From Oscillospiraceae bacterium (GTDB taxonomy: Bacteria; Bacillota; Clostridia; Oscillospirales; SIG627): a DNA stretch of 64,000 nucleotides. Under the pieces are notes generated by a model that was not told where the DNA came from, did not search any database, and saw only the letters and a program-made list of their open reading frames with translations. A program made the translations under genes and the position numbers. The stretch spans positions 3,454-67,453 of the forward strand of contig SVQQ01000003.1 of NCBI GenBank assembly GCA_015065265.1, given 5' to 3'. Positions 6,756 to 61,565 of this stretch are shown in pieces; within the stretch, counting starts at the first letter, position 1; each line of letters begins with the position of its first letter.

Positions 6756-8465
6756 TTAGTTGTAACTGTAAACAAATTCAATATTATCGTAAACGGGCTG
6801 AATCACCAGTTCCCCATTTTCATTAATAAGTCCACGTTTGTCATTGATTTCGACGATTGTCAAACCGTCATCGGAGAAAGAGTAAATGTAATCATAAACA
6901 GGCTGAACAACAACTTCCCCCTTTTCGTTGATAATTCCCCATTTACCATTGATTTCGACTCTTGCCAAACCATCGTAGAAACTGCCAACGTCATCATATA
7001 TAGACTGAACAACCAACTCGCCCTTTTTGTTAATAAATCCGTATTTACCGTTGATTTCAACTTCTGCTAAACCGTTGTCTGAGAAAGGGTAAAAGACATC
7101 ATAAACAGGCTGAATCACGAAGTCACCCTTATTGTTAATAAATCCCCATTTACCGTTGATTTCGACTCCTGCCAAGCCGTTGTCGGAGAAATAGGAAACG
7201 TCATCATAAACAGGCTGAATCACAAGTTCACCCTTATCGTTGATAAATCCCCATTTACCGTTGATTTTAACTCCTGCCAAACCGTTGTCGGAGAAATAGG
7301 AAACGTCATCATAAACAGGCTGAATCACGAAGTCACCTTTATTGTTAATAAATCCCCATTTACCGTTGATTTTAACTTTTGCCAAAACGTTGTCCGAAAA
7401 AGAACCTGCACTATCATAAACGGGCTGAATCACGAGTTCGCCCTTTTCGTTAATAAATCCGTATTTTCCATTGATTTCGACTCTTGCCAAACCGTTGTAG
7501 AAAGAGTAAACGTCATCATAAACAGGCTGAATCACGAATTCCCCTTTTTCGTTGATAAATCCACATTTACCATTGATTTTGACTTTTGCCAAACCGTTTG
7601 AGAAAGGGTAAAAACCATCATATATAGGCTGAATCACGAGTTCCCCATTTTCATTAATAAGTCCACGTTTGTCATTGATTTTGACGATTGTCAAACCGTT
7701 GTCTGAGAAAGAGTCAATATCATCATAAATAGGCTGAACAACCAACTCGCCCTTTTCGTTAGTAACTCCCCATTTACCGTTGATTTTAACTTTTGCCAAA
7801 CCGTTGTCTGAGAAAGAGTCAATATCATCATAAATAGGCTGAACAACTAACTCGCCCTTTTTGTTAATAGATCCGTATTTACCGTTGATTTCAACTTTTG
7901 CCAAACCGTTGTCGGAGAAAGAGGAAACGTAATCATAAACAGGTTGAACAACGTATTTCCCTTTTTCGTTGATAAATCCCCATTTACCGTTGATTTTAAC
8001 TCCTGCCAAGCCGTTGGAGAAATCGTCAACAGCACCACTAATAGGCTCAATAACCACGATGCCCTTTTTGTTAATAAATCCCCATTTACTTTTGTCTTTG
8101 ATTCTTGCCAAACCGTTGTCTGAGAAAGAGTCAATATCATCATAAATAGGCTGAACAACCAACTCGCCCTTTTCGTTAATAACTCCCCATTTACCGTTGA
8201 TTTTGACTCCTGCCAAACCTTCGGAGAAATCGTCAACGTTATCAAAAATTGTATTTGTATAAGGTTTTCCGTTTAGGTCAAGGTACGACCAACCATTGTT
8301 TGATTGAACAAAAAATCCAACCACTTCAATCTCTGTGGTACTGCCTTCAATCTCTGTGGTACTGCCTTCCTCTGTATTATCCTTTTTTTCTTCCTTTTCA
8401 CAAGAGCAGAGGATTAGAGATAAAGTGAGCAAAATTACCCCAACTGCTTTTAAGAATTTTTTCAT
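6756..8465 (-). CDS. WG (KWG) repeat-containing lipoprotein
   Basis: ATG at 8465 after an AAGGAG RBS. Lipobox-like LILCSC. Fourteen 34-35 aa repeats of type (K/G)VxINGKWGFINxKGExVIQPVYD..FSDNGLA, plus one degenerate N-terminal copy. Confidence 0.9.
   Translation of the reverse strand: MKKFLKAVGVILLTLSLILCSCEKEEKKDNTEEGSTTEIEGSTTEIEVVGFFVQSNNGWSYLDLNGKPYTNTIFDNVDDFSEGLAGVKINGKWGVINEKGELVVQPIYDDIDSFSDNGLARIKDKSKWGFINKKGIVVIEPISGAVDDFSNGLAGVKINGKWGFINEKGKYVVQPVYDYVSSFSDNGLAKVEINGKYGSINKKGELVVQPIYDDIDSFSDNGLAKVKINGKWGVTNEKGELVVQPIYDDIDSFSDNGLTIVKINDKRGLINENGELVIQPIYDGFYPFSNGLAKVKINGKCGFINEKGEFVIQPVYDDVYSFYNGLARVEINGKYGFINEKGELVIQPVYDSAGSFSDNVLAKVKINGKWGFINNKGDFVIQPVYDDVSYFSDNGLAGVKINGKWGFINDKGELVIQPVYDDVSYFSDNGLAGVEINGKWGFINNKGDFVIQPVYDVFYPFSDNGLAEVEINGKYGFINKKGELVVQSIYDDVGSFYDGLARVEINGKWGIINEKGEVVVQPVYDYIYSFSDDGLTIVEINDKRGLINENGELVIQPVYDNIEFVYSYN
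8324..8369. repeat. 21-bp tandem duplication (EGSTTEI x2)
   Basis: CTTCAATCTCTGTGGTACTGC occurs twice in tandem, followed by CTTC. Confidence 0.9.
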
Positions 8466-8486
8466 AGTCCTTTTCTCCTTTAAATT

Positions 8487-8697
8487 AAAAAAGTGTGTGC
8501 AAACCGAAGTCGCACACACCGAAAAAGGCGGCTCCGTTTTGCTACCACACAAAAACCTTTTCACACACCCAATAAGGACGACGCGAAATAGAGCCGACAC
8601 TTTTTACCAAAGTAAAAAGAGTATCGTCTCTCATTGGGCATTTTATTCGATTTTTGTGTGGTAAGAAGATTATATCACAAATTCTTTTGTTTGTAAA
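8487..8697 (-). promoter_or_regulatory. sigmaA promoter plus structured 5' leader with an intrinsic terminator
   Basis: Minus strand: TTTACA-17-TATAAT (8697-8669). 12-bp stem ACCACACAAAAA/TTTTTGTGTGGT with nested stems. Terminator GTGTGTGCGA..TTTGCACACAC-T6 just before the RBS. Confidence 0.7.
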
Positions 8698-8699
8698 GA

Positions 8700-8738
8700 A
8701 AAAACAGCCTACACCGTTTGGTGTAGGCTGAAATTTTT
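8700..8738 (-). terminator. terminator of the MBOAT-DHHW operon
   Basis: CAGCCTACACC-GTTT-GGTGTAGGCTG with flanking A/T runs. Confidence 0.8.
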
Positions 8739-9861
8739 ATTTAAATGAATATGAATCGTTTAAAATCATTGCGCTGTAAAGGAAAAGTACGTCGGCGTCC
8801 TTGAATTCTTCTTCACTGATAAGTGCGCCTATAACGTGAGAGTAAACGTAGCGGATATCAACAAGAATGATTTCCGAGTACCCCTCGGTCATAAGAGGTG
8901 CAAGGCTTGAGGAGAAAGAGTCACGGAAGACGATAAGACGTTTTCCCGAAGTGTTCTCGGGGTTTACAATTCTGATAAGGTAAGAGGCACCCGACAAAAA
9001 CATTTCGTAAGGGTCTTTGGAGTTTAACTTTTCTTCATTGTACACCTTTTCGGGAATAATTGTCTCAAGTACTCCGTTTGTGCCCTCGTAGTTGTAAACT
9101 ACGGAATTTTCGATTGAGTCGGACGTGATATAAGTTATCTTATCGGGGGGAAGGGGGAGAGAAGACTGTCCGTAATAGACACCGTAAAAGTCCTTGTCAA
9201 GAGTTACCTCTTTGTAATTTTTAATCTTTTCAGCACCCATTTCGTCAAGTATCTTGTCTGCCACGTCCTTCACCTTTTCCTGACTCCAATGTGTGTCAGT
9301 CTTGTAGTAGTCTGTGTAGTCAAGGAGAGGTAAAATATCTATATACTTTGCGAAGTCAAGGTCCTCTTTTAACTTTTCCACAATTGCCTTGGCGTCAAGG
9401 TAAGGGTAATTTCCAAGAGGTGCGAGGGTATAAGACTTATCGGGAATTACCGAGAAGTACACCTTGTCACTCTTTTCCTTGACGTAGGTATCGTAGAGGT
9501 ACTTTATCTTTTTAACAGCGTTTTCAACCGACTCCACCTTTATCTCGGAGTCAAGTTTTGACGCGTACCCGTCGTGAATATAAATGTCGTTGTTATCTTT
9601 TTGGTTGAAAATATAGAACTTCGCTATCGCCTTAAGGGTACGCCAAGAGTCACGGGCAGGGAATTGGTCGGTAGCATAGTCCTCAAATTTTGAAGTAAAG
9701 TCACCTGAAAGTATGGTATCAATACTCAGTTCAGGGAACTGCGCAAGAGGTCGGCGTTCACTTAAAGAACTCTCGTCTGCAGGTTTTAAAATTGCCATAA
9801 CCGACAGAGAAAAAAGCATCACAATAAAAACAATAGATGAGATTATATATCTTTTTTTCAT
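8737..9861 (-). CDS. DHHW family protein (AlgJ/AlgX-like SGNH partner of MBOAT)
   Basis: N-terminal TM, SERRPLA, TDTHW and RDSFSS motifs. Directly downstream of the MBOAT gene. Confidence 0.8.
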   Translation of the reverse strand: MKKRYIISSIVFIVMLFSLSVMAILKPADESSLSERRPLAQFPELSIDTILSGDFTSKFEDYATDQFPARDSWRTLKAIAKFYIFNQKDNNDIYIHDGYASKLDSEIKVESVENAVKKIKYLYDTYVKEKSDKVYFSVIPDKSYTLAPLGNYPYLDAKAIVEKLKEDLDFAKYIDILPLLDYTDYYKTDTHWSQEKVKDVADKILDEMGAEKIKNYKEVTLDKDFYGVYYGQSSLPLPPDKITYITSDSIENSVVYNYEGTNGVLETIIPEKVYNEEKLNSKDPYEMFLSGASYLIRIVNPENTSGKRLIVFRDSFSSSLAPLMTEGYSEIILVDIRYVYSHVIGALISEEEFKDADVLFLYSAMILNDSYSFK

Positions 9862-9873
9862 AACGTCACCCCC

Positions 9874-11271
9874 TTAAAATCTGAAATACAGGAATGGGTT
9901 ATAAGACCCATCCACAAGGTAAGCAGTACATAACATAAAGAGCAAAACTGCCACAATGGGTTCAACAACTGCCAGAACTCCCGACATCTTCGAGTTTTCA
10001 AGTTTTGAGTGTAATAACTTCGGAAGAGGAGTTGCACCCACAATGCCGAGGATGAAAATCACAGCGTTACTTGACAGGTGATAAAGAGTTGTGTCGTTTA
10101 CAAACTCATATCCGCCTACCCCTATCATACCGAGTAAATCTTTACCTGCAGTCAGCATATCGGGGGCATTGAATATAACAAAGCCGATTGTTACAAAGAG
10201 CATTGTGTAAATATGAGCAAGGACGTCACTTTTAGTTATAATCTTCTTTATAAAGAACTTTTCCAAAATGAGAAGCAAGGCATAGAGAAGTCCCCAGAAA
10301 ACGAAGTTCCACGCCGCCCCATGCCAGAGTCCTGTCAGCATCCATACCACAAGTGTATTGAATAACCACCTTGTAACCTTAACTCTGTTACCGCCAAGGG
10401 GAATATACACGTAGTCTCTGAACCAAGAGCCAAGGGACATATGCCAACGTCTCCAGAATTCACTAATACTCTTTGAAATGTAAGGATAATTGAAGTTTTC
10501 AATAAAGTTAAAGCCGAAAATCTTGCCAAGACCTATTGCCATATCCGAATATCCCGAAAAGTCGAAATACACGTGTATCGCAAAAGCCAGAGCATAAACC
10601 CAGAAAAAGAGGGTAGACTTTTCACTCGTTTCTCTGAAAATATCACATACAGCGCCCATCTGATTTGCTATAAGTACCTTCTTTGAAAGACCCATAATGA
10701 AGCGTCTTGTGCCAAGATAAAATTTTTCAAAAGAGTGTTCACGCTTTTCAAGTTCACGACATACGTCAACGTATCTTACAATGGGCCCTGCAATAAGTTG
10801 AGGGAAGAGGGCAACGTAGGTTGCAAAGTTTATAATGTTTTTCTGATAAGGTACGTTTCCTCTGTAAACGTCGATAGTGTAACTGAGAATCTGGAACGTG
10901 TAGAAACTGATACCGATGGGAAGGGCAATTTTCAAAAGGGGAAGGGAAAGCCCTGTCACCGCATTGAAGTTATCTATAAAGAAGTCGGCGTATTTGAAAA
11001 AGCCAAGTATTACAACACTTGACACCACCGACAGAGTCAGCCAAATTTTCTTCCCCGTCTTTGACTTCGTCTTGTCTATTGCCATACCGATGAAAAATCC
11101 GAGCAGAATTGAAACTGCCATAAGGAATAAGTACAAAGGCTCACCCCAACCGTAGAAGACAAGGCTTGACAGAAGAAGGACTGTGTTTTTAAGTTTAAAT
11201 GGTACCAAAAAGTAAAGTAAAATTACAGTTGGCAAAAAATAAAAAAGGAAAGGTATTCCCGAAAAAAGCAT
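9874..11271 (-). CDS. MBOAT family O-acyltransferase (AlgI/DltB-like)
   Basis: LPIGISFYTFQ, FPQLIAGPIVR, DFSGYSDMAIG, FWRRWH and GLWHGA motifs. Confidence 0.95.
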   Translation of the reverse strand: MLFSGIPFLFYFLPTVILLYFLVPFKLKNTVLLLSSLVFYGWGEPLYLFLMAVSILLGFFIGMAIDKTKSKTGKKIWLTLSVVSSVVILGFFKYADFFIDNFNAVTGLSLPLLKIALPIGISFYTFQILSYTIDVYRGNVPYQKNIINFATYVALFPQLIAGPIVRYVDVCRELEKREHSFEKFYLGTRRFIMGLSKKVLIANQMGAVCDIFRETSEKSTLFFWVYALAFAIHVYFDFSGYSDMAIGLGKIFGFNFIENFNYPYISKSISEFWRRWHMSLGSWFRDYVYIPLGGNRVKVTRWLFNTLVVWMLTGLWHGAAWNFVFWGLLYALLLILEKFFIKKIITKSDVLAHIYTMLFVTIGFVIFNAPDMLTAGKDLLGMIGVGGYEFVNDTTLYHLSSNAVIFILGIVGATPLPKLLHSKLENSKMSGVLAVVEPIVAVLLFMLCTAYLVDGSYNPFLYFRF

Positions 11272-40575: not shown

Positions 40576-40651
40576 GGGGGTTTAGCTCAGCTGGGAGAGC
40601 ATCTGCCTTACAAGCAGAGGGTCACAGGTTCGAGCCCTGTAGTCCCCACCA
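40576..40651 (+). tRNA. tRNA-Val (anticodon TAC)
   Basis: 76-nt cloverleaf with acceptor GGGGGTT/AGTCCCC, anticodon loop CTTACAA, TTCGA T-loop and encoded CCA. Confidence 0.97.
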
Positions 40652-61325: not shown

Positions 61326-61334
61326 TAGCTTAGT

Positions 61335-61497
61335 GATAGAGGTGCGACGATTATAAGTAATTTCCCACACGTGCAAAGGAGCAGGGTAATGAAAGGAATC
61401 GCCGCCGAAATCCGAAAAATATCCTTGAACTGTTTTTCGGGTTGGTTGACTTGTAGAATATGCAGTCGACTGTCACAATTATTTGTGGAGTGCTATC
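61335..61497 (+). promoter_or_regulatory. lysine riboswitch (L-box)
   Basis: GATAGAGGTGCG..AGTA..GAAAGG..CGCCGAA..CTGTCAC..GTGGAGTGCTATC; P1 is GATAG/CTATC. Confidence 0.9.
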
Positions 61498-61565
61498 TTT
61501 TGTGACTTTTTTGTCGTGGGTGATAGTACCCATGACATTTTTTATTTTTTTAGGAGGATTTTTCT

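Follow-up and report, generated by a model that had tools for sequence, protein, structure and literature searches.

Introduction

In the PyrR-controlled pyr attenuators of Bacillus subtilis, an anti-antiterminator, an antiterminator and a terminator are nested within the 5′ leader, and this three-layered logic is typical of protein-controlled attenuators in Firmicutes. In Clostridia, cyclic di-GMP (c-di-GMP) riboswitches of classes I and II precede a variety of genes for surface proteins and adhesins, with many copies to a genome, and they are also present in phages. Here we describe a leader RNA to be set beside these systems. It lies on the minus strand of a 64,000-nucleotide stretch of an Oscillospiraceae bacterium genome (assembly GCA_015065265.1, contig SVQQ01000003.1, positions 3,454 to 67,453; the whole stretch is called the window, and positions are counted from its first letter), where with its promoter it occupies 8487–8697 ahead of a gene for a WG-repeat lipoprotein. 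We conclude, with a probability of roughly 0.72, that this leader works in cis as a transcription attenuator and is one member of a large, so far uncatalogued family of RNAs found in Clostridia and their phages.

Results

A structured leader with a promoter and a terminator of its own

The promoter, helices, hairpin and terminator listed in a preliminary description of this DNA were all recovered in place. The parts of the leader, all on the minus strand, are as follows.

8669–8697: sigma-A type promoter (−35 TTTACA 8697–8692, spacer of 17 nucleotides (nt), −10 TATAAT 8674–8669, TG 8677–8676)
About 8662 to the T6 at 8492–8487: leader RNA, ~175 nt, non-coding
8651–8662: P1 5′ strand, ACCACACAAAAA, starting at about the transcription start
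8621–8639: P2 5′ strand, GCCCAATGAGAGACGATAC, variable in sequence across the family
8612–8622: segment 1, the P3 5′ strand, ACTCTTTTTAC, followed by the loop TTTG 8611–8608; P3 helices are 89–94% paired
8618–8601: core of the P3 hairpin (TTTTTAC 8618–8612, loop TTTG, GTAAAAA 8607–8601)
8591–8607: segment 2 (X), the P3 3′ strand plus a single-stranded toehold, GTAAAAAGTGTCGGCTC, pairing with segment 1 (P3) or segment 3 (helix B)
8567–8585: P2 3′ strand, CGCGTCGTCCTTATTGGGT
8639–8633 with 8573–8567, and 8628–8624 with 8581–8577: inner helices GCCCAAT/ATTGGGT and GACGA/TCGTC
8544–8555: P1 3′ strand, TTTTTGTGTGGT, partner of 8662–8651
8522–8543: linker AGCAAAA and segment 3 (Y, CGGAGCCGCCTTTTT), whose partner is X (helix B) or the terminator 5′ arm and loop
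8487–8520: intrinsic terminator, made of segment 4 (5′ arm GGTGTGTGCGAC, loop TTCG) and segment 5 (3′ arm GTTTGCACACAC) with T6 at 8492–8487

The promoter is close to consensus (score 11/12) and has a TG-extended −10 element (TGaTATAAT 8677–8669). Across 61 units of the family, a −10 element agreeing at four or more of its six positions was present in every case and was TG-extended in 46; the distance from the −10 element to the beginning of P1 was 6 nt in 46 units, so that the transcript starts inside P1. The 201-nt RNA folds with −73.9 kcal/mol, compared with −46 ± 4 kcal/mol for 200 dinucleotide shuffles, none of which equalled it (z = −6.91). Together with the terminator and a covarying antiterminator, this bears out the structured leader of attenuator architecture that had been proposed for the locus.

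The same parts recur throughout the family. P1 is 12–13 base pairs (bp) long and conserved in sequence (RCNACAYAA/UURUGUNGY), with clear double changes at several positions. P2 ranges from 11 to 23 bp, cannot be aligned by sequence and contains an extra hairpin in some members; its duplex is nevertheless specific, with −20.7 kcal/mol for a member's own partner versus −8.5 kcal/mol for foreign ones, the own partner being the best of 53 in 41 cases. P3, a hairpin rich in A and U, has the loop UUNG and contains GGUAAAA almost without variation. The linker 3′ of P1 reads AGCAAUCGGAG... and is followed by a U5 run, while the terminator has a CUUCGG-type loop and a U-tract. In the window copy the terminator stem (8520–8492) comprises 11 bp, and the terminator ends 7 nt ahead of the ribosome-binding site.

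Covariation supports two competing folds

RNAalifold applied to a plain MAFFT alignment recovered no helix besides P1 and the terminator, since sequence alone does not align P2. Instead, 53 members were aligned under the guidance of the model; pairing was scored column by column and compared with 500 column shuffles and with alignments in which the partner was slid by 1–3 columns, alongside duplex tests on each sequence. Many covarying homologues, which the preliminary description had proposed to look for, were found. The fold comprising P1, helix B and the terminator (OFF) was 97.2% paired, with both bases changed at 26 of its 37 pairs; none of the 500 shuffles reached this value, and pairing fell to 33–61% once the partner was slid. 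The alternative fold (ON) was 90.7% paired with double changes at 26 of 39 pairs, was likewise unmatched by any of 500 shuffles and collapsed on the same displacement. Among individual helices of the OFF fold, column pairing was 97.6% for P1 (double changes at 10 of 13 pairs), 99% for the terminator (9 of 11) and 92–97% for helix B (7 of 13).

Helix B is a long-range helix of 14–15 bp that joins X to the linker and U5 run (Y) and is centred on CGGCTC 8596–8591 and GAGCCG 8534–8529. This pairing had first been put forward as possible; it is real and forms the core of the conserved helix, which can form in 53 of 53 members (−14.8 kcal/mol with the own partner versus −10.4 kcal/mol with foreign ones). 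The antiterminator pairs the linker AACGGAGCCGCC (Y) with the 5′ arm and loop of the terminator. It is a hairpin of 10–16 bp in nearly all members, in which GCAA or GCAGC of Y joins the start of the 3′ arm and the U5CGG run forms the loop; own pairings gave about −14.1 to −14.2 kcal/mol versus −11.6 kcal/mol for foreign ones, and in the alignment its 13-pair helix was 88.6% paired, with double changes at 7 of the 13 pairs. G-U pairs are common when the minus strand is read, for example in 46 of 53 members at one antiterminator pair, which fits an RNA transcribed from that strand. A conserved alternative helix on an arm of the terminator, and a terminator placed between promoter and ribosome-binding site, make the leader a probable member of the attenuator class.

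The four helices are balanced in energy (P3 −14.5, antiterminator −14.2, helix B −14.8 and terminator −17.4 kcal/mol), with a preference of 3.6 ± 4.4 kcal/mol for the OFF fold across the family. The segments mimic one another, X resembling the terminator 5′ arm and Y the P3 5′ strand. In addition, the toehold has an alternative partner in the distal part of P2, a pairing that extends P3; in the model it would hide the toehold and so add a further layer.

Two other pairings were considered as switches. That of the P1 3′ strand with the terminator 3′ arm was not adopted, being barely partner-specific (−13 kcal/mol own, −12.1 kcal/mol foreign). The preliminary description had suggested that the 5′ ACCACAC, in the P1 5′ strand, leaves P1 to pair with the GTGTG arm of the terminator and so blocks termination. 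CACAC and GUGUG are indeed complementary in the window copy, and the P1 3′ strand resembles the terminator 5′ arm, but among the 53 members the pairing is weak and not partner-specific (−8.45 kcal/mol own versus −8.03 kcal/mol foreign), P1 itself is worth −20.7 kcal/mol, and another antiterminator exists that does covary. A switch of this kind is very improbable.

A five-segment relay as the proposed mechanism

According to the model, transcription from a strong constitutive promoter would begin with the first base of a long P1–P2 rod that carries the A/U-rich P3 at its tip. Five segments would then act as a relay: the P3 5′ strand, X, Y (the linker just past P1), the terminator 5′ arm with its loop, and the terminator 3′ arm with the U-tract. 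Neighbours would pair as P3 (1:2), helix B (2:3), antiterminator (3:4) and terminator (4:5), and since adjacent segments are complementary there are two self-consistent folds. With P3 and the antiterminator formed (ON), RNA polymerase would read into the gene; with helix B acting as anti-antiterminator and the terminator formed (OFF), transcription would stop at about 8487 and an RNA of ~175 nt would be released. Y is transcribed ~25–30 nt earlier than the segment with which it forms the antiterminator, and closure of P2 exposes the toehold, so that helix B should normally win and termination would likely be the default state. Turning the system ON would need a signal that clamps P3, masks the toehold or holds the rod tip away from Y.

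Several points weigh against reading the leader as an attenuator. Termination at about 8487 and conditional read-through are both predictions from sequence. In the window copy the antiterminator (8536–8527 with 8515–8505) is weak, at only −9.2 kcal/mol, and the OFF fold is therefore favoured by about 7 kcal/mol. Helix B crosses P1 and P2 as a pseudoknot, and a 7-nt linker has to reach the tip of a rod of ~30 bp; the rod must consequently be bent at the internal loop, which is rich in A/U and purines, or be partly opened, and this geometry may itself be where the signal acts. Neither a conserved unpaired pocket nor a partner protein was found across the family, and the trigger is thus postulated. 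Finally, some members have no following gene or stand in tandem with promoters of their own, an arrangement that would equally fit a free-standing small RNA.

Tandem units were found at locus L011 (1513–1699 and 1746–1920), locus L015 (1515–1685 and 1730–1888) and locus L044 (257–426 and 579–748), and every unit has a separate promoter and terminator. The L011 and L015 units have no gene between them, whereas in L044 each unit precedes an AbrB/SpoVT-like gene. Since tandem copies share the sequences of X and Y, cross-talk in trans is conceivable. Such arrays and orphan units, with a promoter each (L011, L015, L016, L018, L049), would suit a stable small RNA of ~175 nt that acts in trans, with downstream expression as incidental read-through; the strong promoter and terminator of each unit, a 5′ end buried in P1 and the presence of up to 10 copies per genome would suit it too. 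A covarying antiterminator that competes with the terminator would, however, be purposeless in a plain small-RNA gene. In most members, moreover, a ribosome-binding site and the start codon of a gene with no space for another promoter follow within about 30 nt of the terminator, and the most variable part of the RNA, P2, is double-stranded and leaves no obvious exposed seed. We regard a purely trans-acting RNA as improbable, although the two roles are not mutually exclusive.

The family is widespread in Clostridia and absent from catalogues

The window's own assembly holds a second copy with 74% identity (BLAST), located ahead of an open reading frame (ORF) of 68 amino acids (aa) and a BspA-type leucine-rich repeat (LRR) surface protein; the P2 sequence of this copy differs throughout from that of the window while the pairing is kept. 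A covariance model built from 11 relatives found a third copy, preceding another lipoprotein gene, so that each of the three copies in this genome stands before a gene for a lipoprotein or surface protein. With the same model, 34 of the 51 genomes of the taxonomic family gave matches, with as many as 10 copies apiece. At the level of the order the carriers numbered 103 of 301 genomes and 58 of 153 genera, and for the class Clostridia 119 of 399 genomes. No match was found in ~290 genomes from other classes of the phylum, which doubles as a control for specificity. The carriers, labelled uncultured Oscillospiraceae, Acutalibacteraceae, Ruminococcus, Monoglobus, Oscillibacter and others, come from human, rodent and ruminant guts.

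The preliminary description had been unable to match the leader to the T-box, c-di-GMP, c-di-AMP, SAM, TPP, FMN or lysine families, and no Rfam 15 family matches it, whether one of these (c-di-GMP-I and -II and ydaO/c-di-AMP among them) or another such as PyrR or EAR. Scanning the whole window at the gathering score returned only Lysine, T-box and tRNA matches, all away from the leader; scanning 8380–8780 at E ≤ 10 gave no credible match over 8487–8662, and 20 diverse relatives of the leader gave no match on the element at E ≤ 0.01. The T-box at 804–1041 (105.9 bits), the lysine riboswitch at 61329–61503 (108.4 bits) and the tRNA at 40576–40648, all on the plus strand, served as positive controls in that their recovery shows the scan to work on this sequence. 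A full-text literature search found no description of the family. The leader family is real, large, phage-associated and uncatalogued; the transcription attenuator as such is an already known class.

A strikingly large share of the family is located no more than a few hundred bases from the end of a contig (for example G073:C103:267–443, G014:C64:198–357 and G072:C167:118–261), where repeat-rich downstream genes for surface proteins or near-identical 3′ halves of the leader have likely broken short-read assemblies. A repeat or mobile element acting at the level of DNA is unlikely in view of the covarying helices with many G-U pairs on one strand, the exact placement between promoter and ribosome-binding site, and a P2 that varies between copies.

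Downstream genes mostly encode surface and exported proteins

The leader had been thought to gate the WG-repeat lipoprotein gene. That gene does adjoin it at this locus:

6756–8480, minus strand: WG-repeat lipoprotein gene (Shine–Dalgarno (SD) sequence AAGGAG 8480–8475, ATG 8465–8463)

Its product has a signal peptide ending in LILCSC and at least 12 WG repeats (PF14903, WG_beta_rep, E = 3.8e-156 over 12 stretches). The leader is not specific to this gene, however, and the family precedes very different ones. An SD-preceded start codon lies within 60 nt of the U-tract in 48 of 61 chromosomal units. Tabulation of the downstream genes, another suggestion of the preliminary description, was carried out with Pfam on 70 proteins from chromosomes and phages and returned mainly surface and exported proteins. 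PASTA domains (6), BspA-type LRRs (5), DUF6591 (3) and DUF4839 (3) were accompanied by zinc ribbons, WG repeats, M23, NlpC/P60, PG_binding_1, SH3_3, SPFH and AbrB/MazE-like domains, and many of the proteins have lipoprotein or other signal peptides. Judged from these sequences, the predicted regulon is extracytoplasmic and accessory, consisting mostly of lipoproteins, cell-wall-binding proteins, surface-repeat proteins and phage accessory proteins, and not metabolic.

A further set of proteins of ~75–81 aa, beginning MGK(L/I/F)(L/I)(D/E)E(M/A)W..., was seen repeatedly 3′ of the leader in the window's genus (L013:1644–1886, L012:1246–1470, L011:1263–1493). These look cytoplasmic, with no signal peptide by eye, and are unlike most of the other cargo.

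Phages carry the leader as part of an accessory cassette

GenBank phages searched with blastn gave no match to the leader, whereas a pattern of the conserved core matched more than 109 IMG/VR contigs, and all 80 that were tested carry one full-length leader match. Three of the IMG/VR hits bear accession numbers whose format suggests isolate genomes. In the two contigs examined, which come from related phages, the leader and its cargo fill the same slot (L264:9593–11696 and L234:7544–10019), between phrog_6568, a small conserved phage protein, and an endonuclease/exonuclease pair whose endonuclease is VRR-NUC-like. The cargo of this slot is interchangeable, being either a 256-aa lipoprotein (phrog_29396) or a 186-aa PASTA-domain membrane protein that has no PHROG match and a Gly/Ala-rich N-terminus that looks membrane-spanning. 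The phage unit thus behaves as an accessory ('moron') cassette.

NrdD and a YonO-like single-subunit RNA polymerase are encoded near the slot. The latter is how we take a 915-aa protein at L234:10552–13299 on the plus strand (IMG/VR contig 3300045988_077879), which matches phrog_4291 ('RNA-dependent RNA polymerase', E = 0). As a speculation, a phage polymerase that ignored the leader terminator could let phage operons pass through the cassette.

What might trigger the switch

When the ORFs of 120 loci, each up to 8 kb long, were clustered, no recurrent neighbouring regulator emerged; only cargo genes recur. A leader peptide was rejected, an ATG-initiated ORF with an SD sequence being present in only 1 of 61 members. 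c-di-GMP was rejected as well: GGDEF domains occur in 40 of 103 carrier genomes versus 132 of 198 non-carriers (odds ratio 0.32), which leaves 63 of 103 carriers (61%) without one. Protein factors were surveyed in 57 carrier genomes that are at least 96% complete. As obligate factors, Hfq (11 of 57), CsrA (3 of 57) and a cold-shock protein (domain in 2 of 57) were all rejected, each being also absent from the window's own genome. A LoaP-type NusG paralogue fared no better, as the NGN domain is single in 53 of the 57 carriers and present twice in only 3.

Two observations were made along the way. Of 57 near-complete genomes of the order, 55 lack the cold-shock domain (PF00313), which was found in 10 of 14 control genomes; its absence is unusual for bacteria. 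The window's own assembly (95.9% complete) yielded no NusG NGN domain, most likely because the nusG region was lost from the assembly.

An RNA-binding protein, either new or universal (NusA, NusG or a ribosomal protein), could bind the invariant UNGGUAAAA/U-run module and flip the relay in the manner of PyrR or TRAP. The three-layered logic of the leader matches that of the protein-controlled attenuators of Firmicutes, and P1 (ACAYAA/UURUGU) and GGUAAAA are conserved beyond the needs of pairing. Against such a protein stand the lack of a conserved regulator gene beside the 120 loci and the scarcity of each surveyed factor among carriers, and we consider it possible but on the unlikely side.

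That none of the protein factors tested occurs in most carrier genomes would instead suit a true riboswitch, in which a universal metabolite or ion binds the module of P3 and internal loop, or the P1–P2 junction, and thereby selects either P3 or helix B. Its balanced alternative folds have the architecture of an expression platform, and the multi-copy, phage-borne family with its varied envelope regulon is also in keeping with a riboswitch. The competing helices, however, explain nearly all conserved nucleotides and leave no evident conserved pocket of unpaired bases, the downstream genes, for envelope proteins of many kinds, indicate no metabolite, and c-di-GMP is excluded by the carriers that lack GGDEF. 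We consider a riboswitch unlikely.

There may also be no dedicated effector, the leader being either a kinetic sensor of how fast the polymerase moves or how well nucleotides are supplied at the U-runs, or an attenuator or insulator of fixed ratio that travels with accessory cassettes. RNA–RNA pairings account for all conserved features, the conserved U5 runs lie exactly between the decision segments, and the unit is portable between chromosomes and the accessory-gene slots of phages. A fixed ratio would not need such elaborate and balanced alternatives, though, and a simple thermometer is unlikely: over 20–50 °C the computed ON/OFF balance moves only from −2.7 to −4.0 kcal/mol, which is no simple thermodynamic switch. 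The absence of any effector is rather unlikely in our estimate.

What remains as trigger is a universal factor or metabolite, some other protein, or a kinetic mechanism. We hold it possible, though less likely than not, that the family is a new class of riboregulator with no need of a dedicated protein. It would then be a riboswitch whose ligand is a universal ion or small molecule, or else would sense transcription by kinetics alone. Its relay of five strands, in which a toehold-driven pseudoknot is the anti-antiterminator, would serve gut Clostridia and their phages as a portable on/off module governing exported and cell-wall-binding proteins, likely superinfection-exclusion lipoproteins among them.

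Genes upstream of the leader

Upstream on the same strand, the region 8737–11271 (minus) encodes a 465-aa membrane protein resembling acyltransferases of the MBOAT/AlgI–DltB type and a 374-aa protein with a DHHW-like motif (TDTHWS), both judged by eye. The DHHW-type gene has its own terminator at 8730–8705, after which comes the leader promoter.

Discussion

If the leader family is what we propose, it would be among the most widespread unclassified leader RNAs of gut and rumen Clostridia, present in about one third of the sampled genomes and often in 3–10 copies. It would control the surface repertoire of largely uncultured commensals (lipoproteins, BspA-type LRR, PASTA, peptidoglycan-binding, NlpC/P60 and M23 proteins), and the same module would ride on phages ahead of accessory genes. 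The identity of the trigger would reveal either a new signal for envelope remodelling or phage–host interaction in the gut, or a protein-free switch made from a relay of mimicking helices, which would also provide a compact synthetic-biology part for Firmicutes.

Each of the known systems resembles the leader in part. Like the moron cassettes of phages, which consist of promoter, gene and terminator, the leader and an exported-protein gene occupy one slot among genes of DNA metabolism with swappable cargo; no moron is known to carry a conserved structured switch leader that is common to host chromosomes. With the c-di-GMP-I and c-di-GMP-II riboswitches the family shares its many copies per genome, varied surface genes and carriage by phages, but it lacks their Rfam match, and 61% of the carriers lack a GGDEF cyclase. 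The T-box (RF00230) is similar in size, common in Firmicutes and likewise built as a long 5′ rod followed by an antiterminator and terminator; the leader, in contrast, has no RF00230 match, specifier loop or UGGN bulge, and its downstream genes are not related to amino acids. Attenuators of the trp and his type use the same chain of consecutive segments (1:2, 2:3, 3:4), in which either neighbour can serve as partner and two folds exclude each other, whereas the leader has no leader peptide (1 of 61), and its chain comprises five segments set within a long closing rod. The PyrR attenuators likewise nest three alternatives in a 5′ leader and decide by stabilizing an upstream helix. Here, however, there is neither a PyrR-binding loop motif nor an Rfam match, and the regulon concerns the envelope and not pyrimidine genes; the anti-antiterminator is a long-range pseudoknot helix that competes with a fourth hairpin, P3, and the family is multi-copy and phage-borne.

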